Source of the DNA: a virus
IMG/VR virus record: IMGVR_UViG_3300044733_003647
Coordinates: 64,001 to 128,000 of that record
Strand: one strand, 5' to 3'
Length of the DNA: 64,000 nucleotides
In this document: positions 54,911-64,000 of the stretch, piece by piece
Layout of the letters: every line of letters starts with the position of its first letter
How positions within the stretch are numbered: the first letter of the stretch is position 1
Notes under the pieces: model-generated
The model's database searches: none
Told to the model about the DNA's origin: nothing
Seen by the model: the letters and a program-made list of their open reading frames with translations, nothing else
Program-made: the position numbers and the translations under genes

Positions 54911-55095
54911 TCCCATCGGGATGGGAAACTACCATGCCTGTGAAGGGTAGTAAAAGAACCACAGGTGCCAATTCTGCCCACCTTAGGGCCTGTTTGTCGC
55001 TACGGTAAAAGGCGTCCGTGTAATTACACCTCTGACACGAAAGTTCAGACCAGTATAAGGTAAGCTGGATTAACCGCAACGCCTTCGGGGTTGCA
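54911..55095 (+). ncRNA. Putative structured leader RNA upstream of hsp20
   Basis: Several hairpins plus two loop complementarities (CCTGTG/CACAGG; ACCTTA/TAAGGT). Confidence 0.55.
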
Positions 55096-55105
55096 ATTTT
55101 TTGTA

Positions 55106-55120
55106 CTCGCTTAATAGGAG
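55106..55120 (+). promoter_or_regulatory. ROSE-like RNA thermometer hairpin occluding the hsp20 SD
   Basis: CTC(G)CT-TAAT-AGGAG, i.e. UCGCU with bulged G opposite the SD. Confidence 0.65.
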
Positions 55121-55126
55121 AACTAT

Positions 55127-55588
55127 ATGACATACGTAAAAGATGTGTTCGGCAAAGACCTTTTCGACTTCCACAAATTTGACCCTTTCGCTGTTGGTTA
55201 CGACAAGATGTTCGATGACCTGCAAGAAATGGCAAAGAATGTGACTAAGGCTATTCCTTCTTATCCCCCATATAACATTCGCCAAGTCAAAGATAACAAA
55301 TGGGTTATCGAACTGGCAGTTGCAGGTTTTGCAAAATCTGATATTGAGGTAACTCTAGAAGGTAATAAATTGGTTATCAAAGGCGCAACACAGGACAATG
55401 AGCCTGAAGAAGGTACATTCCTACACAAAGGCATTGCTACTCGCAATTTCACCCGCGAATTCAAACTTGCGGACAAAATCGAAATTGAAAATGCGGAACT
55501 TACCAATGGTATGTTAAAGATTTGGTTGGAAAACCTAGTCAAAACACAAGACATGGTCAAGAAAATTTCCGTGAAAAGTAAAGAATAA
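55127..55588 (+). CDS. hsp20: Small heat-shock protein Hsp20/IbpA family
   Basis: YPPYNI...IELAVAGF...FLHKGIATRNF.R.F.LA...A.L.NGML.I.L. Confidence 0.95.
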   Translation: MTYVKDVFGKDLFDFHKFDPFAVGYDKMFDDLQEMAKNVTKAIPSYPPYNIRQVKDNKWVIELAVAGFAKSDIEVTLEGNKLVIKGATQDNEPEEGTFLHKGIATRNFTREFKLADKIEIENAELTNGMLKIWLENLVKTQDMVKKISVKSKE

Positions 55589-55589
55589 A

Positions 55590-55676
55590 ATGATTAGAAA
55601 ATTATTCGAAGCTTTTTTGGAAGCAATTCAAAATCTTAAAAAATATAAATCTGGACCAAGTATAAAAGGTAGTTAA
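55590..55676 (+). CDS. Small hypothetical peptide (28 aa)
   Basis: MIRKLFEAFLEAIQNLKKYKSGPSIKGS starts 1 nt after the hsp20 stop. Confidence 0.35.
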   Translation: MIRKLFEAFLEAIQNLKKYKSGPSIKGS

Positions 55677-55690
55677 TACCAAAACCAAAT

Positions 55691-55726
55691 GGAGGGCTTG
55701 ACAGGCCCTCCACTTTATTGTATAAT
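55691..55726 (+). promoter_or_regulatory. Sigma70 promoter whose -35 sits in a hairpin loop
   Basis: GGAGGGC-TTGACAG-GCCCTCC; TTGACA-N17-TATAAT. Confidence 0.75.
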
Positions 55727-55732
55727 TTTATT

Positions 55733-55930
55733 ATGAAAACGCAAAAAAAATCTATTCTCAAAAAAGTCCGTGTGAAAATCTCAAATGAGGAGTTCTACAC
55801 GTTCTCTGATTGGCCATCAAAGGAAATTGATGGTGTGGAATTTATTGCCGTGAATAAACGTCTTCCAGCAGGTAATCAAACACAACTAATCCATTGGTTG
55901 CGTAAAGATAGCGTAGAATATATCAAATAA
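55733..55930 (+). CDS. Hypothetical protein
   Basis: 65-aa ORF whose ATG lies about 7 nt after the -10 box (possibly leaderless). Confidence 0.6.
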   Translation: MKTQKKSILKKVRVKISNEEFYTFSDWPSKEIDGVEFIAVNKRLPAGNQTQLIHWLRKDSVEYIK

Positions 55931-55935
55931 TATTT

Positions 55936-56011
<76 letters not shown>

Positions 56012-56029
56012 TTTTAAAAAAGGAAAAAC

Positions 56030-56479
56030 ATGTCTACCACAATAAAAAACTTAGAGAGTGCATTGGCTGGTGAGTCAATGGCACATATTAAATATCGCTA
56101 TTTCGCCAAGATTGCCCAAGATGAAGGTTTTGAGGACATTGCTAAACATTTTTGGCATACCGCAGACCAAGAACTTCTACATGCATGGGGTCACCTTGAG
56201 TTGTTGATTGGTAAGCCTTCCACTAAAGAATGTTTGGAGAAAGCAATTGAAGGTGAAACGTATGAATTCACCACAATGTATCCAGATTTTCAACGTGCAG
56301 CTGAACTTGAAGGTGATCTTACCGCCTCAATGGAAGCAAAAGTACAAATTGAAGAATCTAAAGAACACGCCGAACAATTTAAAAAGGTTCTTGAATTGGC
56401 AGAGAAACGTTTCGCTGCACTTGCTAAGGTCGAGAAACGCCACGCAGAAGCATATCAACAAAAACTAGGAGAACTATAA
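56030..56479 (+). CDS. Rubrerythrin (ferritin-like domain)
   Basis: NLESALAGESMA..KY..FA..A..EG...QE..HA...GETYE...MYP.F...ES.EH. Confidence 0.9.
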   Translation: MSTTIKNLESALAGESMAHIKYRYFAKIAQDEGFEDIAKHFWHTADQELLHAWGHLELLIGKPSTKECLEKAIEGETYEFTTMYPDFQRAAELEGDLTASMEAKVQIEESKEHAEQFKKVLELAEKRFAALAKVEKRHAEAYQQKLGEL

Positions 56480-56610
56480 TGAGTGAGAAAGTATATGTTT
56501 GTATCGTTTGTGGTCACACATTGTCTGAAGCAGATTATTTGAGTCTGCCAGATTCAGTTAATTGTCCCGAGTGTGGTGTTTCTAAAGAAGATTATGTTTT
56601 GATGGAGTAA
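56479..56610 (+). CDS. Rubredoxin-like protein (not in ORF track)
   Basis: MSEKVYVCIVCGH...LPDSVNCPECGVSKEDY with two CxxC motifs; TAATG coupling. Confidence 0.85.
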   Translation: MSEKVYVCIVCGHTLSEADYLSLPDSVNCPECGVSKEDYVLME

Positions 56611-56613
56611 TTT

Positions 56614-57024
56614 ATGGACTGCATGGTTATTGGTGATAGCATTGCGGTTGGTACAGCAATGTACCGACCAGAATGTGTTAGTTATTCGCGTGGTGGTTGG
56701 AATACTTGGCAGTGGAATAGAGATTATCTTTCTATGGCATCAAGTAAATCTTATAAGACAGTGATTATTAGTTTGGGTGCTAATGACCATGCAGGCGTAA
56801 AAACTGAGCAAGAACTCCGCAAAATGCGTCAAAACATTAAAGCGGATAGAGTTTTTTGGATTAGTCCAGGTATGGAACGCAAGCCTGTACCTCAAACTGC
56901 AATCGAAAAAATTGCAAAAGAATATGGTGATTTTGTTTTACCTAGACCTAAAGATCATATGAGTACTGATGGAATTCATCCTACAGGTAAAGGTTATAAA
57001 ATTCTGGCAGAACAATCTAGATGA
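56614..57024 (+). CDS. SGNH/GDSL hydrolase-like protein
   Basis: IGDSIA, SLGAND, DGIHP. Confidence 0.8.
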   Translation: MDCMVIGDSIAVGTAMYRPECVSYSRGGWNTWQWNRDYLSMASSKSYKTVIISLGANDHAGVKTEQELRKMRQNIKADRVFWISPGMERKPVPQTAIEKIAKEYGDFVLPRPKDHMSTDGIHPTGKGYKILAEQSR

Positions 57025-57036
57025 ATACGAAGTTCC

Positions 57037-57531
57037 TTAAGTTTTTGTAAAGATTAGCCACATAAATTTAATAAAGGCAATTAAAATAAACAATCCAATC
57101 AAAGAAACAACTATGGTTAAAAAATCTTCTGCCATTTGTTCTCTTTGTTTGGCTTTTGCTTTTATCATTTCCCTTTCAGCAGCATTTCTCTCTTTGATTA
57201 GGCGTGTTCGTTCGCGGAGCATGTCTTCCCAAACATCTCCGTTGCCACTGTATATCAACAGTTCTTTAAGTTCTTTTTCGGCATCTCTGAGTCTTTTCGA
57301 ATTCATTGCAAGTTCTAAAGCTACAGCACCTAATTCACTGTCACTTTTACCAACATTTTTTGCTTTCAGTTTAACTGAAGCTGAATGTACCGTATCGGAT
57401 GAATTGAAAAATTTTATAAACTCACCGGTTAAAGAATGAATATCTTTACCTAGAGCCATTGCTTTTTTGATATTATTAACTGACGATTGAGCCACACTAA
57501 AAGCGATGCCGATTGTTACAGGATCAATCAT
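57037..57531 (-). CDS. Hypothetical membrane-anchored protein
   Basis: MIDPVTI N-terminus, coiled coil, C-terminal TM helix; the only clear minus-strand gene. Confidence 0.7.
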   Translation of the reverse strand: MIDPVTIGIAFSVAQSSVNNIKKAMALGKDIHSLTGEFIKFFNSSDTVHSASVKLKAKNVGKSDSELGAVALELAMNSKRLRDAEKELKELLIYSGNGDVWEDMLRERTRLIKERNAAEREMIKAKAKQREQMAEDFLTIVVSLIGLFILIAFIKFMWLIFTKT

Positions 57532-57551
57532 ATAATTATTTAGGATGTGAA

Positions 57552-58067
57552 ATGAAAGAAAAATTTATTAATGCATATATGAAAACGGCCGAGGTGTTCG
57601 CAGAACTATCCTCGGCTCGTAGACTCCATGTCGGTGCGATTGTTGTAAAAGATGATCGCATCATTTCAATTGGTTATAATGGTACTCCTTCTGGTTGGGA
57701 TAACAACTGTGAAGATAAAGAGTATATGGACCAAGGAGCTGGTGGTTGGCTCAGTCCAGAAGAAATTGAACATTCATGGCCAAACCTAGAACAACAACTT
57801 CCAAAAGAATCCAATATTTGGAAAAGATATAAGTTAACAACCAAACCTGAGGTACTTCATGCTGAAACAAATGCAATTGCAAAGTTGGCTAAAAATGGCG
57901 CTTCTTCTAATGGTGCTGTATTGTTTGTTACTCACGCTCCTTGTTTGGATTGCGCCAAGCTTGTATATCAAAGTGGCATCAATTCTGTGTATTATCGCAA
58001 CAGTTATCGTAGTGAAAGTGGCATTCAATTCTTGGAGAAAGCTGGAGTTAAAGTAGAGAAAATTTAG
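57552..58067 (+). CDS. dCMP deaminase
   Basis: VGAIVVKD.RIIS.GYNG, HAE.NAI, PCLDC. Confidence 0.92.
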   Translation: MKEKFINAYMKTAEVFAELSSARRLHVGAIVVKDDRIISIGYNGTPSGWDNNCEDKEYMDQGAGGWLSPEEIEHSWPNLEQQLPKESNIWKRYKLTTKPEVLHAETNAIAKLAKNGASSNGAVLFVTHAPCLDCAKLVYQSGINSVYYRNSYRSESGIQFLEKAGVKVEKI

Positions 58068-58115
58068 TTGATAAATATATGTGGGTAATAGTGTCTCAAA
58101 AATGGAGATTCTTTG

Positions 58116-58622
58116 ATGCAGGTACGTATACTTAACTGTCCAGATAAAGACTTCAGACCTTTCGTTGAGAGAGCTGCCGTTTTTTACGCCAAAGAACTTA
58201 TACCAAATACCAGAATTCGAAATAATTGCCTAACAGAAATACATTTCGATACTAAATTAGATGATTATGGCTTCGCAAGTGTAGAAGATTACAATAGCAG
58301 AAAACAACCTAGACATTTTATTATCGAAATCAATCCACTTATTGGTTCCAGAAGAATACTTGAAACACTTGCACATGAAATGGTACACGTGAAACAGTAC
58401 ATTTTTGGTGAAACCAATGATACATTAACCAAATGGCGTAATAAAAAATTAGATCCTGATAAAATAGATTATTGGGTACAGCCTTGGGAAATAGATGCGT
58501 ATGGCAGAGAAACAGGTTTATTAACCAAGTTTGCGATATCAGAACTTCTATGGGAAGTATTTGACGACTTTGTTGACCCTTCTGGCCCAATACAAGAAAA
58601 ACCAATTGCCTGGAAAAGATAA
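58116..58622 (+). CDS. Putative zinc metallopeptidase
   Basis: TLAHEMVHVKQ (HExxH)...QPWEIDA. Confidence 0.75.
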   Translation: MQVRILNCPDKDFRPFVERAAVFYAKELIPNTRIRNNCLTEIHFDTKLDDYGFASVEDYNSRKQPRHFIIEINPLIGSRRILETLAHEMVHVKQYIFGETNDTLTKWRNKKLDPDKIDYWVQPWEIDAYGRETGLLTKFAISELLWEVFDDFVDPSGPIQEKPIAWKR

Positions 58623-59167
58623 TGTCACACAAAGCACAATTAAATTTTGTTAATCGATTAAAAGAAAATAAACCTAATTTTTTTAATAATGCAAAAATTA
58701 TTGAAATTGGAAGTTTGGATATTAATGGAACAATTAGAAGTTTTTTTGAAAATTGTGATTATGTTGGTGTCGATGTTGGGCCGGGAAAAGGAGTCGATTT
58801 GGTTTGTGAAGGTCAAAAAGTAGATCATCCAGACAACACTTATGATGTTTCTTGTTCTTGTAATTGTTTCGAACATAATCCATATTGGGTTGAAACATTT
58901 AGAAATATGTTTAGATTAACAAAAAGTGGTGGACTAATTTTTGTTTCTGTTCCTACCACGGGAAGACCGCCTCATGGTACACATGAAATTTCTCCGGAAG
59001 ATAGTCCATTAACAATAAGCATTGGTTGGAATTACTATAAAAATTTAACCGAAAAAGACTTTACTGATAATTTTAATTTAAATGAAATGTTTAGTGAATT
59101 TAAATTTGAAGAATACCATGAAGAAAATAGTGAACATGATTTATACTTTTTTGGTATTAAAAAATAA
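58622..59167 (+). CDS. SAM-dependent methyltransferase (type 11-like)
   Basis: IIEIGS.DING, YVGVD...GVD, FEH.P.W, GGLI. Confidence 0.8.
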   Translation: MSHKAQLNFVNRLKENKPNFFNNAKIIEIGSLDINGTIRSFFENCDYVGVDVGPGKGVDLVCEGQKVDHPDNTYDVSCSCNCFEHNPYWVETFRNMFRLTKSGGLIFVSVPTTGRPPHGTHEISPEDSPLTISIGWNYYKNLTEKDFTDNFNLNEMFSEFKFEEYHEENSEHDLYFFGIKK

Positions 59168-59181
59168 TTTTTAAAAACCGC

Positions 59182-59210
59182 TTGACAAACAAACAAAACG
59201 CCTATATAAT
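59182..59210 (+). promoter_or_regulatory. Sigma70-consensus promoter driving the leader/attenuator
   Basis: TTGACA-N17-TATAAT. Confidence 0.85.
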
Positions 59211-59241
59211 ACAAACATTGTTAAATTTTTTAGGAAGAATC

Positions 59242-59346
59242 GTGTCTCTCATACATAAACCCTTTAGTTTGCAGCCAGAGTATCGCACAATTAATTGTGC
59301 CGATGCGTCATGGCCGACCGGGTTTTGTGTAGAAAAGGATTGTTAA
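59242..59346 (+). CDS. 34-aa putative attenuator leader peptide MSLIHKPFSLQPEYRTINCADASWPTGFCVEKDC
   Basis: AGGA SD at 59232, GTG start, TAA stop; all 20 amino acids; first 27 codons all distinct. Confidence 0.7.
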   Translation: MSLIHKPFSLQPEYRTINCADASWPTGFCVEKDC

Positions 59347-59383
59347 GAACTAAGTTCTAAAAAAGACTCCAAACACAAGACCC
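59320..59383 (+). promoter_or_regulatory. Antiterminator helix
   Basis: GGGTTTTGTGT (59320-59330) pairs 11/11 (one G-U) with ACACAAGACCC (59373-59383), overlapping the terminator 5' arm. Confidence 0.7.
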
Positions 59384-59410
59384 TTAGACTAAAACTCTAA
59401 GGGTTTTTTG
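59380..59410 (+). terminator. Intrinsic terminator (attenuator)
   Basis: ACCCTTAGA-CTAAAAC-TCTAAGGGT-TTTTT. Confidence 0.85.
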
Positions 59411-59415
59411 TTTGG

Positions 59416-59487
59416 TGTTGCGATAAAACAACACACTGGTTGACAGGTCATTGAATCTGTCATACAATACACTTTGTTCTTTAAAAA
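59416..59487 (+). promoter_or_regulatory. tRNA-array promoter 1 with upstream inverted repeat and boxA-like element
   Basis: TGTTG-N8-CAACA-N6-TTGACA-N17-TACAAT, then TGTTCTTTAAAAA (59475-59487). Confidence 0.75.
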
Positions 59488-59505
59488 TTTATAGAGTTAT
59501 TTTGA

Positions 59506-59579
59506 TCCCGGATTGTGTAGTGGTAGCACAGCAGACTTTGACTCTGTTAGTATAAGTTCGATTCTTATTCCGGGTGCCA
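59506..59579 (+). tRNA. tRNA-Gln(TTG)
   Basis: GCAGA-CTTTGAC-TCTGT, TTCGA, CCA. Confidence 0.9.
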
Positions 59580-59784
59580 TAAGTATGATAATTAAGTTGT
59601 CGGATGTGTGAAAGCAAGAGCCTCGAAATTCTTGTAAGTTGGACCTAATTAGTCTAGTAGCAAACAAGTAACACTATCACTGACGGATCCTAAGAGTAGA
59701 AATACTCATAAGCACAGGCGCTGATAAATTGTGCATAATGCTTCCAATGTTGTGATGGAAGAACTTAATTATCATTCTTATGGC
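59576..59784 (+). ncRNA. Putative structured RNA closed by a 23-bp inverted repeat
   Basis: GCCATAAGTATGATAATTAAGTT / AACTTAATTATCATTCTTATGGC (22/23). Confidence 0.55.
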
Positions 59785-59798
59785 AAAGGAGATATGCA

Positions 59799-60257
59799 AT
59801 GAAAAAAATTGTATTGTCTATATTATTGTCTTTACCTTTATTTGCTCATGCATGTAAAGGTTATGTGATAGGATTTAAAGGTTTGAATGATTCATTTAAT
59901 TCTGTTGCATTTCAGAAATACTCAAATCGTTTAGGTTATTGTGGTAAATCTTTTTCTTGGTTTCAAGATAGAGAAGCATTACAATACATTCAAACACTAA
60001 AGAAACCTTATCGCCTTTATGGTTTCAGTAGAGGCGCACAGACAGTTTCAGATGTGTTAAAACAAACGAAAAGAAAACCTGAGTATGTCGTGACCATTGG
60101 TGCTTACAAAACTGCGAATGTTAATTTTGATGAGTACGATATACGTTATGATAATTTTTTTGACCATTCTGGAGTAGGTCAGAAAAGCCCAGGAGTATTT
60201 TTCAATGTGTCTCATGCAGACATAGAGAAAGAAGTTAGTGAATTTATAATAGAATAA
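59799..60257 (+). CDS. Exported alpha/beta-hydrolase-like protein
   Basis: Signal peptide MKKIVLSILLSLPLFAHA; GFSRG nucleophile elbow; AGGAG SD. Confidence 0.65.
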   Translation: MKKIVLSILLSLPLFAHACKGYVIGFKGLNDSFNSVAFQKYSNRLGYCGKSFSWFQDREALQYIQTLKKPYRLYGFSRGAQTVSDVLKQTKRKPEYVVTIGAYKTANVNFDEYDIRYDNFFDHSGVGQKSPGVFFNVSHADIEKEVSEFIIE

Positions 60258-60258
60258 T

Positions 60259-60350
60259 GGAAGCGTGCCAGAGTCCGGTTTATTGGAACAGTCTTGAAAA
60301 CTGTCGATCTAGAAATAGGTCCGTGAGTTCGAATCTCACCGCTTCCACCA
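60259..60350 (+). tRNA. tRNA-Ser(TGA)
   Basis: ACAGT-CTTGAAA-ACTGT, long variable arm, CCA. Confidence 0.92.
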
Positions 60351-60353
60351 ATT

Positions 60354-60427
60354 CAGGGTATATGATAGTGGCAGTCGCCGAGGTTTGGAACCTTGTAGTG
60401 CAAGTTCGATTCTTGCTACCCTGACCA
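60354..60427 (+). tRNA. tRNA-Pro(TGG) copy 1 (divergent)
   Basis: CGAGG-TTTGGAA-CCTTG, CCA. Confidence 0.85.
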
Positions 60428-60437
60428 CAAAGATTTC

Positions 60438-60527
60438 GGAGAGTGGGCAGGATGGTAATGCAGCGGATTGCTAATCCGTAGATCGTGTAACAGCGGTCAG
60501 TGGGTTCGACTCCCACACTCTCCACCA
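60438..60527 (+). tRNA. tRNA-Ser(GCT)
   Basis: GCGGA-TTGCTAA-TCCGT, long variable arm, CCA. Confidence 0.92.
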
Positions 60528-60529
60528 AT

Positions 60530-60620
60530 ACCTCTGTAGTTTAATGGTAAAACAGCGGATTTATACCCCGTAGCGCCAGATAAGCGGCTGATGTGAGTTC
60601 GATTCTCACCAGAGGTACCA
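60530..60620 (+). tRNA. Atypical tRNA with TAT anticodon and long variable arm
   Basis: ACCTCTG/CAGAGGT acceptor, GCGGA-TTTATAC-CCCGT, about 21-nt variable region, CCA. Confidence 0.75.
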
Positions 60621-60626
60621 ATTTAT

Positions 60627-60702
60627 GTGGGTGTGACCCGAAAGGCTAGGGAACGGATTGCAAATCCGTTTTATGCAGGTTCGATTCCTGTCACCCACTC
60701 CA
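60627..60702 (+). tRNA. tRNA-Cys(GCA)
   Basis: ACGGA-TTGCAAA-TCCGT, U73, CCA. Confidence 0.9.
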
Positions 60703-60729
60703 GTTCATTCGCCATTCGCGAATAGAGAA

Positions 60730-60819
60730 TGTTGTTAAAAAACAACAGTATGGTTGACAGATTCGGTAGTTCTGTTACAATACATTCATACGTTGAGAAA
60801 TCAACATGTTCTTTAAAAA
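60730..60819 (+). promoter_or_regulatory. tRNA-array promoter 2 with the same architecture
   Basis: TGTTG-N8-CAACA-N6-TTGACA-N16-TACAAT, then TGTTCTTTAAAAA (60807-60819). Confidence 0.75.
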
Positions 60820-60824
60820 TTTAC

Positions 60825-60913
60825 GCGAGTGTGGTGGAACGGTATACACAGCAGACTTAAAATCTGCCAGGACCGCAAGGTCCTTGAGGGTTCGAATCCC
60901 TCCACTCGCACCA
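60825..60913 (+). tRNA. tRNA-Leu(TAA)
   Basis: GCAGA-CTTAAAA-TCTGC, long variable arm, CCA. Confidence 0.92.
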
Positions 60914-60915
60914 AT

Positions 60916-60991
60916 GCACCTATCGTCTAACGGTTAGGACGGCGCCCTTTCAAGGCGCAAACGAGGGGTTCGATTCCCCCTAGGTGTACCA
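60916..60991 (+). tRNA. tRNA-Glu(TTC)
   Basis: GCGCC-CTTTCAA-GGCGC, CCA. Confidence 0.9.
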
Positions 60992-61138
60992 TTTGTTTAG
61001 TGTTATCAAGGTATCGTGTATGGACGCATACACTATTCGGGCTCAACCGGCCGGGAACGGGTCCTGATATAACTGCATCGGCTTTGAAGAGGAAGCACCT
61101 CAATTCTAAATTTGCACGATAACACTAAACAAATGGTA
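60987..61138 (+). ncRNA. Putative structured RNA closed by a perfect 21-bp inverted repeat
   Basis: TACCATTTGTTTAGTGTTATC / GATAACACTAAACAAATGGTA. Confidence 0.55.
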
Positions 61139-61144
61139 ATTTAT

Positions 61145-61218
61145 GGGGGTATAACTTAGTGGTAAAGTATCCGGCTTTTAACCGGAAAACCAGAGTTCAA
61201 TTCTCTGTGCCCCTACCA
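61145..61218 (+). tRNA. tRNA-Lys(TTT)
   Basis: TCCGG-CTTTTAA-CCGGA, CCA. Confidence 0.92.
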
Positions 61219-61329
61219 TATAAAAACACATTGTCATGCAGCACAGCCGAATCTGTGTGTAACTCCTAGGCGTAACCTATTGTGAGAAATAGGGGAGTGC
61301 AATTCTCATCAGTGTGTTTCTATATGGTA
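61214..61329 (+). ncRNA. Putative structured RNA closed by a 20-bp inverted repeat
   Basis: TACCATATAAAAACACATTG / CAGTGTGTTTCTATATGGTA (one mismatch, one G-U). Confidence 0.5.
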
Positions 61330-61331
61330 AA

Positions 61332-61485
61332 TTATTTGTTGAAAGCCTGACAGAAAGTGCTTAACCAGCGGCCTAACTCTCAAGGTAATACCAACCCTTG
61401 CACTTATTGCTGTGGTGGCAATCGCTTCCAAGGGGACCACTTTATTACTAGGTCTTAAACAGTAGAGAGTGCTTTCAACAAATAA
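61332..61485 (+). ncRNA. Putative structured RNA closed by a perfect 15-bp inverted repeat
   Basis: TTATTTGTTGAAAGC / GCTTTCAACAAATAA. Confidence 0.5.
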
Positions 61486-61557
61486 AAAGGGAGAATCGCC
61501 GCGAGGCGTATTCTTAAACGACCTGTAGAACTCCCAGGCGTCCCGTAGTTAGTTTTT

Positions 61558-61650
61558 GGAGGTCTTGATGCTAAGGCGTGTGCATCACCGGACTGTAAAT
61601 CCGGTCCCTCGTGGTAAACATTCGCGGTTCGACTCCGTGGACCTCCACCA
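61558..61650 (+). tRNA. tRNA-Tyr(GTA)
   Basis: CCGGA-CTGTAAA-TCCGG, long variable arm, CCA. Confidence 0.9.
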
Positions 61651-61668
61651 ATTTAATAGGAGAGTACT

Positions 61669-61872
61669 ATGTTAATTTCAGAAATATCAAATTATACCAC
61701 TTGGGTGGGTGATATTAGAAAAACAATAGTAAGAGAAATTTTTAAATATGATGAGGGTAATGATGTAATAGTTGTAACAGTTCATGGTCAAGAATTTGCA
61801 CAACTGTATAGTGAAAAAGGAAAAGAAGTTTCACAAGATAATAAAGGAACGAATATAGATATTCGTGCTTAA
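61669..61872 (+). CDS. Hypothetical protein
   Basis: 67-aa ORF with AGGAG SD inside the tRNA array. Confidence 0.6.
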   Translation: MLISEISNYTTWVGDIRKTIVREIFKYDEGNDVIVVTVHGQEFAQLYSEKGKEVSQDNKGTNIDIRA

Positions 61873-61877
61873 GATTT

Positions 61878-61952
61878 GGTCTCAAAGTGTTCATGGACGC
61901 ACGTATGCCTGTCACGCATAAAGAAGGGGATCGTTACCCCTTGGGACCGCCA
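61878..61952 (+). tRNA. tRNA-Asp(GTC)
   Basis: TATGC-CTGTCAC-GCATA; T-loop ATCGTTA; G73, CCA. Confidence 0.88.
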
Positions 61953-61956
61953 GAAC

Positions 61957-62157
61957 GTTCTGTCTAATCAACAGATAGTCTGACCCGGACGATGAGAAGT
62001 GGTGTGATATCCACGGGTGGTACACTTTAAACCGAAAGTGCGTTGGCAATACGATAACGGTCCCTGTCGGGAAGCGGGTGGAAGGTATGCGTGATGGATA
62101 TGAGAGACAACCAACTAAATCCTGATGTACTACAATTACCGCCGGGGGACGCAGAGC
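61957..62157 (+). ncRNA. Putative GC-rich structured RNA after tRNA-Asp
   Basis: Ends pair (GTTCTGT/GCAGAGC; CCCGG/CCGGG); internal hairpins; no credible ORF. Confidence 0.45.
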
Positions 62158-62248
62158 ATATTGAAACACATTCGCCTTCCCATGGTGGGAAGGTCCCGTA
62201 AAGCTGTCCTAGGCGGTGGGGTAGTTGCAAGAAGTGTGTTTCAATATG
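62157..62248 (+). ncRNA. Putative structured RNA closed by a perfect 14-bp inverted repeat
   Basis: CATATTGAAACACA / TGTGTTTCAATATG. Confidence 0.5.
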
Positions 62249-62394
62249 GTGTCTGCAAACTGCTCACTTGTTGAACCTATAATTTACTAGACGGGTGACT
62301 AGGATGGTTCGCAACCTTAAAGGTATGATCCGTACAGCGTTAACGGACAGTCTAGTAAGTCGGATATGAGCACCGACCACCATTTTATTTTTAT

Positions 62395-62469
62395 TCCAGT
62401 GTAGCACAGCGGTAGTGCAGGTGACTGTTAATCACTTGGTCGTTGGTTCGATCCCAGCCACTGGAGCCA
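62395..62469 (+). tRNA. tRNA-Asn(GTT)
   Basis: GGTGA-CTGTTAA-TCACT, CCA. Confidence 0.92.
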
Positions 62470-62476
62470 ATTTAAT

Positions 62477-62553
62477 CCGAGTATAGCGCAGTCTGGTAGC
62501 GCACCTGGTTTGGGACCAGGGGGTCGGGAGTTCGAACCTCTCTACTCGGACCA
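62477..62553 (+). tRNA. tRNA-Pro(TGG) copy 2
   Basis: CCTGG-TTTGGGA-CCAGG, CCA. Confidence 0.93.
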
Positions 62554-62607
62554 ACACTCGCCTTGACTTATGGCGTATAATAAGAAAAATAATAAGTCAT
62601 CTTTTTT

Positions 62608-62683
62608 GGGCTGATAGTGATACTGGGGTACACGCTGGTTTTGCAATCCAGAGATAGGAGTTCGATCCTCCTTCGGTCCACCA
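62608..62683 (+). tRNA. tRNA-Ala(TGC)
   Basis: Loop TTTGCAA; G3-U70 pair; CCA. Confidence 0.88.
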
Positions 62684-62689
62684 ATTAAT

Positions 62690-62764
62690 GGTACTATGAC
62701 GTAGACGGATGCGTACCGGTTTCATAAGCCGAGGAGATTGGATCGTTACCAATTAGTACCACCA
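62690..62764 (+). tRNA. tRNA-Met(CAT), elongator-like
   Basis: CCGGT-TTCATAA-GCCGA; T-loop ATCGTTA; CCA. Confidence 0.8.
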
Positions 62765-62767
62765 TAA

Positions 62768-62845
62768 CCGCCCGTAACTCAGTGGACTTAGAGTGCTTGG
62801 CTACGAACTAAGAAGTCGGGAGTTCGAATCTCTCCGGGCGGTCCA
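62768..62845 (+). tRNA. tRNA-Arg(ACG)
   Basis: CTTGG-CTACGAA-CTAAG, CCA. Confidence 0.92.
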
Positions 62846-62849
62846 TTTT

Positions 62850-62924
62850 ACCCTTGTAGCTCAGAGGAAGAGCACCGTCTTGATAAGGCGTAGGTCGACA
62901 TTTCGAAATTGTCCAAGGGTACCA
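62850..62924 (+). tRNA. tRNA-Ile(GAT)
   Basis: Loop TTGATAA, CCA. Confidence 0.88.
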
Positions 62925-62927
62925 AAT

Positions 62928-63001
62928 ATCTCGCTGGTGTAATGGCAGCATCACAGTCTCCAAAACTGTTGGTCGGGGTTCGAGTCCCTGGCGGGATGCC
63001 A
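62928..63001 (+). tRNA. tRNA-Trp(CCA)
   Basis: ACAGT-CTCCAAA-ACTGT, CCA. Confidence 0.92.
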
Positions 63002-63027
63002 TAAGTAAAATAAGAAAGGTGATTGAT

Positions 63028-63516
63028 ATGAAAAATTTCAATTTGCAAGAAGTAAAAGAATTTGTCTTGAATCAAGGACCCGATACGAAAGTTTATTTGG
63101 GTGCAGACTCAGAACGTATTCGTGTTAATGGTGTTTGGTATGCAGATTATGCTCTTGCAGTTGTAGTTCATATCGATGGTCGCCATGGTTGTAAAATCTT
63201 TGGTTATGTTGAGAGAGAACTGGATTACGATCATAAGAAAAGTAAACCAGCAATGCGTCTGATGACTGAAGTTTATAAAGTGTCTGAATTGTTCCAAAGT
63301 TTGGCTGATGTGTTGGAAGACCGTCATGTTGAAGTTCACTTAGACCTTAATAAGTCTGATGAATACGGAAGTTCATGCGTTGTACAACAAGCAATTGGTT
63401 ATATCAAAGGTACATGTAACATGACACCTATGGTTAAACCAGATGCACCAGCTGCTTCGTTCTGTGCAGACCGATTAAAACGGATTCTTACAGAACAAGT
63501 AACTGTAACATGTTAA
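63028..63516 (+). CDS. RNase H-like YkuK/DUF458 family protein
   Basis: VYLGADSE...RLMTEVYK...EVHLDLN...GYI...VKPDA.AAS..AD. Confidence 0.8.
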   Translation: MKNFNLQEVKEFVLNQGPDTKVYLGADSERIRVNGVWYADYALAVVVHIDGRHGCKIFGYVERELDYDHKKSKPAMRLMTEVYKVSELFQSLADVLEDRHVEVHLDLNKSDEYGSSCVVQQAIGYIKGTCNMTPMVKPDAPAASFCADRLKRILTEQVTVTC

Positions 63517-63523
63517 TGACGAT

Positions 63524-63599
63524 GGAGTTATTAGTGTAGTGGACTGCACACCTTGCTGTGACCGAGGTAGTATGAGTTCGATCCTCATATAACTCCCCA
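63524..63599 (+). tRNA. tRNA-His(GTG)
   Basis: CCTTG-CTGTGAC-CGAGG; G-1/C73; CCA. Confidence 0.9.
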
Positions 63600-63605
63600 A
63601 ATTAT

Positions 63606-63680
63606 GCCTTGTTAACTCAGCGGTAGAGTGTCTCCCTTACAAGGAGAAGGTCGGCGGTTCGATCCCGTCACAAGGTACCA
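63606..63680 (+). tRNA. tRNA-Val(TAC)
   Basis: TCTCC-CTTACAA-GGAGA, CCA. Confidence 0.92.
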
Positions 63681-63683
63681 ATT

Positions 63684-63759
63684 GCTGCTTTAGCTGATGT
63701 GGTCATAGCGGCGGCCTGAAGAGCCGTTGAAGTTGGTTCGATTCCAACAGGCAGCGCCA
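63684..63759 (+). tRNA. tRNA-Phe(GAA)
   Basis: GCGGC-CTGAAGA-GCCGT, CCA. Confidence 0.88.
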
Positions 63760-63760
63760 A

Positions 63761-63834
63761 GCTCTCATAGTATAATGGTATTACATACCCTTGGTAAGGG
63801 TAAAACACAAGTTCAATTCTTGTTGGGAGCACCA
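63761..63834 (+). tRNA. tRNA-Thr(GGT)
   Basis: TACCC-TTGGTAA-GGGTA, CCA. Confidence 0.92.
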
Positions 63835-63977
63835 ATGTTGGGAATAACCAACGGTTTGAATTCAGCTTTCGCTTGATTAATTATTGGATGTGGTGTAAAA
63901 TACCTACTTGTTGTAAGATAAATGCAGTGATGCACATTAGCTGAGATTTTTATAGGTTCATTCATAAAAGTATATAT

Positions 63978-64000
63978 GCCCCGGTGACGGAATCGGTATA
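63978..64000 (+). tRNA. Start of another tRNA (Leu-like), truncated by window end
   Basis: GCCCCGG-TG-ACGGAATCGGTATA acceptor/D-arm pattern. Confidence 0.5.

Follow-up and report, generated by a model that had tools for sequence, protein, structure and literature searches.

The stretch of viral DNA analyzed here, 64,000 nucleotides (nt) long and referred to below as the window, corresponds to bases 64001-128000 of a viral contig (156.7 kb, 38% G+C), and at 59182-59410 its plus strand carries a promoter, a short open reading frame (ORF) and a terminator ahead of an array of tRNA genes. From a comparison with related loci we consider it probable that this element is a ribosome-mediated transcription attenuator, situated between a strong promoter and the tRNA array, whose leader peptide reports decoding speed over nearly all tRNAs. 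Sequence comparison establishes a conserved ORF, helices that in their pairing are mutually exclusive, a conserved geometry, a near-complete amino-acid repertoire in the leader and a constant position at the head of the array.

The leader promoter P1 (TTGACA-N17-TATAAT, 59182-59210) matches the consensus in 12 of 12 positions and is followed by a Shine-Dalgarno (SD)-like AGGAAG at 59232-59237, read from the sequence, 4 nt ahead of the start codon. The leader ORF (59242-59346) has 34 sense codons and a TAA stop. It contains all 20 amino acids, none of them more than three times, and 30 distinct codons, of which the earliest repeat falls on codon 28. These elements had been pointed out in an earlier note on this DNA, and all of them are present, with GTG as the start codon; as the ORF opens with GTG and not with ATG, the sole methionine of the leader is the initiator. 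An intrinsic terminator follows at 59381-59409, consisting of a stem-loop (59381-59403, CCCTTAGA/TCTAAGGG) and a U-tract (59404-59409). The first array gene, a tRNA-Gln(UUG) identified with ARAGORN and Rfam, lies at 59506-59579, and 21 tRNAs are found from here to the end of the window. The note had further described certain GC-ending codons of the leader as out of place, and the six that it named (CTC, CCC, CGC, GCG, CCG and GGG) are indeed rare, each occurring 2-6 times per 1000 codons in the phage. Codons with a relative synonymous codon usage (RSCU) below 0.5 make up 19% of the window leader, compared with 5.5% in gene windows.

In the mechanism that we propose, RNA polymerase would start at P1 while a ribosome translates the 34-codon leader. 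A strand within the last codons of the ORF, R2, could pair with a strand further downstream, R3, and because R3 overlaps the 5' arm of the terminator, R2:R3 pairing would block terminator formation and let transcription continue into tRNA-Gln and the array. With a ribosome that keeps pace, R2 would be occupied or just unwound as R3 emerges, so that the terminator would form and transcription would stop; in the window, an upstream segment, R1, could in addition recapture R2 behind a fast ribosome. A ribosome that lags within the first ~22 codons would leave R2 free, the antiterminator would form and the array would be transcribed. With 19-20 types of amino acid, mostly one or two of each, and a high share of rare codons, the leader should have a transit time that hinges on nearly every charged tRNA. 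Since tRNAs are the product, the circuit would amount to negative feedback on the phage tRNA pool, and it would also induce the array whenever the tRNAs of the host are in short supply, lack their amino acid or have been cleaved. From the features described in the following we infer that the ORF is translated, in which direction the switch works and that it responds to the supply of tRNA.

Homologous leaders preceding the tRNA arrays of related phages

Relatives were reached by three routes. Three contigs carrying a homologous leader were found with the 152-residue downstream gene as the query. Two invariant stretches were combined into a search pattern (GAGTATCGCACA...GTCATGG), which retrieved 64 loci, 49 of which are true homologues; the other 15 were discarded as chance matches, 13 of them lying inside a prohead-protease-like gene and the remaining two being L148 and L149. 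With the anticodon arm of the phage tRNA-Gln as a query, about 60 further loci were found, many of whose leaders are devoid of the conserved core and far more divergent. In total we obtained 56 distinct leader sequences encoding 52 distinct peptides of 31-47 residues that fall into seven clusters at 55% identity. All originate from uncultured phage contigs of about 140-175 kb. Wherever the sequence of a homologue suffices, a distance of 13-138 nt separates the leader from a downstream tRNA-Gln that opens an array of as many as 32 tRNAs, and a promoter is present at the equivalent place ahead of the leader. Where a relative is represented by enough sequence, it has 23-32 tRNAs for 19-20 amino acids.

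The alignment of regions upstream of tRNA arrays had been suggested in the earlier note as a check on its proposal, and the outcome bears it out: 50 of the 52 peptides, spread over the seven clusters, contain 19-20 types of amino acid, the frame is open and the helix is kept, changes in the antiterminator are compensatory, the terminators covary, and every copy heads a tRNA array.

Several observations argue for translation of the leader. In the first set of sequences, frame 0 is free of stops in all 32 distinct leaders, whereas stops occur in frame +1 in 28 and in frame +2 in all 32 of them; in the second set, every new leader-bearing sequence has a leader ORF without an internal stop. Insertions and deletions between groups are multiples of three. 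Leaders of groups A and B have AGGAAG or GGAG ahead of a GTG, TTG or ATG, while in groups C, D, E and G an ATG follows the -10 hexamer by 6-7 nt, the layout of a leaderless mRNA. Leaderless initiation requires ATG, and the start codon is ATG in 22 of 22 sequences of the leaderless classes, compared with 12 GTG, 12 ATG and 6 TTG in the SD-led ones. Note that the peptide itself is only weakly constrained, with a synonymous share of 34% among codon differences between nearest neighbors against 24% expected at random, and that peptide sequences cannot be aligned between clusters.

The element was found only in uncultured freshwater T4-like phages. No match was obtained when the leader region was compared by blastn with 50,697 phage records, and when leaders of classes E and F were used as queries against cultured phages, the matches were restricted to the tRNA-Gln part. 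At the protein level, a 44-residue homologue of the 34-residue window peptide served as the query and returned two unnamed matches among 5.8 billion proteins; with these two proteins and no Rfam match, the family is unannotated. The presence of short ORFs with all 20 amino acids in the tRNA region of phage T5 was not supported, as a scan of T5 from 20 to 50 kb yielded no leader of the promoter-ORF-terminator type; T5.063 does contain 20 types, but has 57 residues and the appearance of an ordinary small protein. No comparable ORF was seen upstream of the first tRNA in Aeromonas phage 44RR2.8t. The closest cultured relative with a large array is Stenotrophomonas phage DLP_6, with 63% identity in the major capsid protein and 37 tRNA matches, and there a terminator script and a pattern scan detected no leader and terminator pair at the array head. 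In a separate observation made by eye only, the region just upstream of the DLP_6 array (~102.9-103.1 kb, L215:1400-1600) shows a tmRNA-like GGGGATGCCCAGGTTTCGACGGG, followed in frame by ANDDSFAPMAIAA and a stop codon.

Alternative helices and the position of the ribosome

The predicted antiterminator consists of R2 (GGGTTTTGTGT, 59320-59330, codons 27-30) and R3 (ACACAAGACCC, 59373-59383), which pair in the fold of the nascent transcript. The CCC at 59381-59383 opens the terminator stem, and the ACCC at 59380-59383 is part of the extended stem. The earlier note had described a helix of 11 base pairs overlapping the 5' arm of the terminator, and such a helix is found, with a calculated energy of -18.0 kcal/mol and with ACCC common to both structures. 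In all homologues R2 is G-rich and placed in the last codons of the ORF, and R3 lies just 5' of the terminator, overlapping its stem by 3-6 nt. The calculated stability of the R2:R3 duplex is -15 to -24.5 kcal/mol, compared with -5 to -11 kcal/mol for shuffled R2, with p <=0.02 in 33 of 34 sequences of the first set and p <=0.04 in 27 of 27 of the second. The native duplex is far more stable than the shuffled one in all 61 sequences.

This pairing is retained through substantial changes in sequence, with 21 distinct variants of the R2:R3 helix in the first set. In alignment A2, 86% of the R2:R3 cells are paired, against 37-56% when the register is slid. Both-sided changes occur at five of the ten pairs, for instance U-A, C-G and U-G at one position and G-C and A-U at another, and the covariation score was reached by none of 500 shuffles. 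The terminators behave alike; the first set contains 14 distinct covarying stems, all of them G+C-rich hairpins followed by a U-run. The stop codon and the terminator stem are 34 nt apart in the window, and this distance stays within 26-37 nt across all classes, whose spacers are unrelated in sequence.

In addition to R2, R3 and the terminator, the upstream competitor R1 (ATACATAAACCC, 59251-59262, codons 4-7), which the earlier note did not include, gives rise to a four-segment design that follows the logic of trp-type attenuators. R1 is a candidate anti-antiterminator that pairs with R2 in the minimum free energy fold of the full transcript. The calculated energy of the R1:R2 duplex ranges from -14 to -19 kcal/mol, with p = 0.04 in the comparison with shuffled R2. 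It reaches significance in groups A and B; as it fails to do so in group C, it was rejected as a universal feature. A further hairpin resides within the ORF at 59274-59314 (about -19 kcal/mol for 59274-59316) and includes the invariant GAGTATCGCACA and GTCATGG. In groups A-C it is nearly invariant in its nucleotides, and where the apical stem has been replaced it still pairs. The nucleotides TATCG...(A/G/T)(A/C)ATGG are kept across classes A-D and G, with CATGG read as S-W (TCA TGG) in A-C and as H-G (CAT GGC) in class D. Our guess, by analogy with the 1:2 structures of trp and his, is that this may be a polymerase pause hairpin that would synchronize ribosome and polymerase.

In calculated folds, the two states of the switch appear at different transcript lengths. 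Without a ribosome, nascent RNA extending to 59392 folds with R2:R3 formed, while the full-length transcript folds as R1:R2 plus the terminator, with a stability above that of shuffled sequences (z = -4.3). When ribosome masks were applied to the full-length transcript, the equilibrium fold always contained the terminator. As such folds are uninformative for a co-transcriptional switch, the nascent transcript to 59392 was used instead, with 30 nt around the A-site codon masked. Under these conditions R2:R3 was kept for stalls at codons 4-22 and was lost or broken with codon 24 or 30 in the A site. The earlier note had stated that a stall at any early codon frees the antiterminator; with respect to folding this holds for codons 4-22, but the stretch covers only ~17 types of amino acid. 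Its other statement, that a ribosome at the stop codon masks the antiterminator, is inaccurate for the window, where such a ribosome covers ~2 nt of R2 and masking spans codons 24-33. In the homologues, the distance between the 3' end of R2 and the stop codon ranges from -3 to +22 nt and is mostly 0-3 nt, and as R2 thus abuts or includes the stop codon in most relatives, a terminating ribosome would cover it there.

Amino-acid completeness and rival explanations

Among the 52 peptides, 35 contain all 20 types of amino acid, 15 contain 19, and two contain 17-18. In the 31 leaders of the first set, frame 0 encodes a mean of 19.5 types, compared with 15.1-17.0 in the other five frames and 16.3 in nucleotide-shuffled open frames, and because these other frames and shuffles score lower, base composition alone fails to explain the completeness. 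Clusters with unrelated peptides (e.g. MMQNLRLSPITLSAMSPTWQANYRCENHGFIGTSKDPAEVCV, MKTNCISVLRKHLPLNSGWSVTRPQFAAIEYDSEGFGK and MKNISIHLSTTLCAKSATTWQADYRSLRSENNGFIPPLGVVYR) all have 20 types. Individual changes look as if they were compensated in a way that keeps the amino-acid set. L100 (..IHKP..EYRT..) and L161 (..IRKP..EYHT..) differ by a reciprocal exchange of H and R, and L157 has lost the N-terminal H, gained an H in the core and regained an R after the tryptophan. Rare codons (RSCU <0.5) account for 16% of leader codons across the set, against 5.5% in genes.

Taken by itself, the ORF in the window is borderline improbable, a marginal case that is suggestive only. With independent draws at the codon frequencies of the phage, the probability of all 20 amino acids in 34 codons is 7e-4 and that of 27 distinct codons at the start is 1.2e-4. 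The genome has ~1600 start-to-stop frames of 30-40 codons, and an ORF of this kind would be expected about 0.2-1 time per genome. Among 9467 short ORFs of related loci, about 1 in 1000 reaches 20 types by chance, and none of 7804 windows of real genes does. It is the conservation across relatives that makes the leader significant. One might still suppose that a single diverse ancestral ORF arose by chance and passed its diversity on through the conserved core, and in groups A-C this nucleotide-conserved core does already supply 12-14 types. With the core held fixed, however, 17.5 types are expected where 19.5 are observed, and the probability of reaching 20, which is 1e-4 to 2e-3 unconditionally, is 0.006-0.04 per peptide (about 0.01-0.02), yet 17 of 29 peptides reach it. 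Classes D, E and G lie outside the core search pattern and have unrelated peptides, but still show 20 types, and conservation extends to the open frame, the spacing and the alternative helices. We therefore regard chance with shared ancestry as very improbable.

The same element might be an independent small gene, encoding a small RNA of ~190 nt or a micropeptide beside an array that is transcribed from a promoter of its own. The window indeed has a promoter and a terminator for the element and a separate promoter, P2 (TTGACA-N17-TACAAT, 59440-59468, an 11/12 match), downstream of the terminator and ahead of tRNA-Gln. The hairpin within the ORF is conserved at the nucleotide level and partly read in another frame in class D, and the greater stability of the transcript relative to shuffles would suit a structured RNA too. 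P2 is absent, however, in the lineages of L100, L151, L156 and L186. In the L100 lineage the T-run of the terminator is followed by tRNA-Gln within about 10 nt, and in the other three the two are 35-57 nt apart, with nothing but a small hairpin and a boxA-like motif between them. No promoter was found between terminator and tRNA-Gln in these four lineages, and the sole promoter-like site precedes the leader, so that transcription of the array head from there needs read-through of the terminator. A conserved helix that excludes the terminator would be without purpose at the end of a simple gene. Also against this rival, the peptide is weakly constrained, unalignable between clusters and matched by no more than two unnamed proteins, and the region has no Rfam match. 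Both this explanation, quite improbable in our judgment, and that by chance fit the data poorly.

Within the attenuator reading, the leader may be a sensor of the whole tRNA pool, in which ~17-20 types of amino acid serve as independent test codons and any shortage of a charged tRNA would switch on the complete set; we take this as a serious possibility and hold it tentatively. Shortage could be brought about by a mismatch in codon usage with the host, by host shut-off, or by anticodon nucleases of the PrrC, RloC, VapC and PARIS kind. Rising phage tRNAs would shut the array off again, and the element would act as an inducible, self-limiting counter-defense and a tRNA homeostat. Alternatively, the attenuator could sense coupling in general and react whenever translation capacity falls, be it through fewer free ribosomes, through a block of initiation or elongation, or through host shut-off, with the diversity of the leader being a by-product of overlapping RNA constraints or a means to avoid dependence on a single tRNA. 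Switch and geometry would work for any ribosome delay, three of the 20 types in the window lie outside the stall-sensitive stretch, completeness is leaky, and the leaderless classes would be sensitive to initiation conditions. Against this stands that the diversity is specific to the frame (19.5 types versus 15-17 in other frames and 16.3 in shuffles), that it is kept across unrelated clusters and through reciprocal swaps, which a by-product of composition leaves unexplained, and that the element is found only at the heads of tRNA arrays. We consider such a general sensor unlikely.

A number of observations weigh against a tRNA-sensing attenuator and have to be set beside the evidence above. 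R2 of the window ends 13 nt ahead of the stop codon, and with a ribosome parked there 9 of the 11 R2:R3 pairs are still possible; as R2 is barely masked, termination under fast translation would have to rely on timing or on R1. The positions at which a stall leaves R2 free hold only 16-19 types (17 in the window). W, G and V of the window leader are outside this stretch, and since W, G, V and often H are found in or beside R2 or the conserved hairpin, part of the amino-acid diversity may stem from RNA motifs. Furthermore, 17 of the 52 peptides miss one to three types (H, V, C, A or F) while the matching tRNA, where the array can be seen, is retained, as with Cys in L129. A comparison of missing amino acids with missing array tRNAs is uninformative, the arrays being near-complete or cut by contig ends. 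The near-invariant nucleotides within the ORF point to a function at the RNA level that the model does not need. As the sequences are related by descent, the probabilities calculated per peptide are not independent. The only RNA run with a match covers 59612-59696 and 59826-60079, originates from a related phage and does not cover the leader, so that it is silent on leader expression. Finally, P2 follows the terminator in the window and in many relatives, so that the attenuator of the window would add to transcription of the array and not gate it. The caveat in the earlier note that the element merely boosts the array is accordingly valid for the window, but does not extend to the several lineages without P2, in which the attenuator would be the sole route.

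Relation to known attenuators and further features of the phage

Attenuation by leader peptides is a textbook mechanism in amino-acid biosynthesis and also operates at a few synthetase genes and at some resistance genes; the leaders there repeat codons for one or a few amino acids. The enterobacterial amino-acid operons are controlled in this way by trpL, hisL, pheL, leuL and thrL and by the multivalent leaders of ilvGMEDA and ilvBN, all of which sense charged tRNA. The general model of attenuation by a leader peptide has been described (PMC1183508). The element analyzed here is like the trpL/hisL type in its promoter-proximal short ORF, its intrinsic terminator, an antiterminator that excludes the terminator, and its presumed dependence on the ribosome, and groups A and B have, like trp 1:2, an upstream segment able to sequester an antiterminator strand. 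Unlike that type it has no runs of cognate codons, but 19-20 types of amino acid at one to three occurrences each, and the 5' strand of the antiterminator is inside the last codons of the ORF and not downstream of the stop. The genes to be regulated are tRNAs instead of biosynthetic enzymes, the element is phage-borne, and several classes are leaderless.

Attenuators upstream of the Bacillus subtilis genes bmrCD (with bmrB) and vmlR and of mef/mel (msrD) are reported to respond to slow translation of a leader ORF with read-through by way of a terminator and antiterminator (PMC4191407, PMC9226507, PMC4335068). They share with the present element a response to ribosome delay that is not tied to one amino acid. 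They differ in that the ribosomes are stalled by drugs, the controlled genes encode efflux or ribosome-protection functions, and the leaders are neither compositionally complete nor linked to tRNA genes. In mycobacteria, leaderless polycysteine short ORFs are reported to be attenuators of downstream operons that act through translation speed (bioRxiv 10.1101/834739). These too are leaderless short ORFs at the 5' end of a transcript; they are specific for cysteine, control cysteine-related genes and are not known to involve a terminator and antiterminator pair of the present kind. A T-box binds one specific uncharged tRNA directly, with no need of an ORF or a ribosome, and its targets are amino-acid genes and those for aminoacyl-tRNA synthetases. 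The element resembles it in that the state of the tRNA pool would decide between terminator and antiterminator for genes of translation supply. In an Rfam scan of 55000-64000 with E up to 1, no T-box or other Rfam family was found in 59182-59410; the scan returned matches to the tRNA clan, located on the tRNA genes, and otherwise only hits below the gathering threshold (Plastid-ycf2, Plastid-psbl-rps4, sX4 and YrlA), none of them in 59182-59410.

To our knowledge, the control of expression of phage tRNA arrays is largely unknown, and a literature search gave no published account of leader control of this kind for tRNA genes. What appears to be new, as judged from the sequences, is the combination of familiar attenuator hardware with a leader that samples almost the whole amino-acid alphabet and with tRNAs as the controlled genes. 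If true, this would provide a regulatory mechanism for phage tRNA arrays and explain how a phage with a full set avoids over-production of tRNAs. It would also establish a testable link to anti-phage defense that targets tRNA and to the counter-defense by phage tRNAs, and supply a small natural device that senses decoding speed globally and might serve as a reporter.

The phage itself is affiliated with the T4-like myoviruses by genes for terminase, portal, major head protein, tail sheath and a gp46-like protein in the contig. Judged by the major capsid protein (63-66% identity), the cultured phages closest to it are those of Methylophilales, Pelagibacter and Stenotrophomonas, and 23 DNA runs from lake-water metagenomes contain the stretch. 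The whole genome has 28 tRNAs from tRNA-Gln onward and an upstream tRNA-Met, which together serve all 20 amino acids. Outside the window, at G000:C1:30546-30962, the same genome holds a tmRNA gene with the tag peptide ANDEKFALAA according to ARAGORN. By combining a full tRNA set with a tmRNA and the proposed attenuator responding to translation speed, the phage may practice a broad management of translation.

A near-copy of P1 (TTGACA-N17-TATAAT, with the same CCTATATAAT) is found directly ahead of a tRNA-Gly at G000:C1:128835-128864 (L002:1500-1530), without leader ORF or terminator, and as this copy drives a tRNA directly, P1 can be regarded as a promoter of the tRNA type. Between the terminator and the -35 box of P2, the palindrome TGTTG-N8-CAACA (59416-59436) is kept in relatives that have P2, and may be an operator or a further hairpin. 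Just ahead of tRNA-Gln, at 59475-59489, lies TGTTCTTTAAAAATT, read from the sequence, which may resemble the rrn boxA (TGCTCTTTAACAA). The motif GTTCTTTAAAAATTT precedes tRNA-Gln in most leader classes, with the variant GTTCTTTAACAATTT in class F and none in the lineages of L100 and L161. It is a separate element downstream of the attenuator, and its presence suggests that transcripts which have passed the attenuator could assemble an antitermination complex like that of rrn. In classes D and E a small hairpin (GGGCATCGTCCC) precedes the boxA-like motif.

Within the array, the segment 59612-59696, a non-coding stretch after tRNA-Gln, is covered at a depth of 37-52 by metatranscriptome contigs of a related phage, with uncovered flanks, and may represent an abundant small RNA of the tRNA array. 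At 60530-60620 a tRNA of 91 nt with the anticodon TAT and a long variable arm is assigned as tRNA-Ile by ARAGORN, a shape that is unusual for a decoder of AUA. A further tRNA at 62690-62761 is scored by Rfam with 41.5 bits and was not called by ARAGORN.

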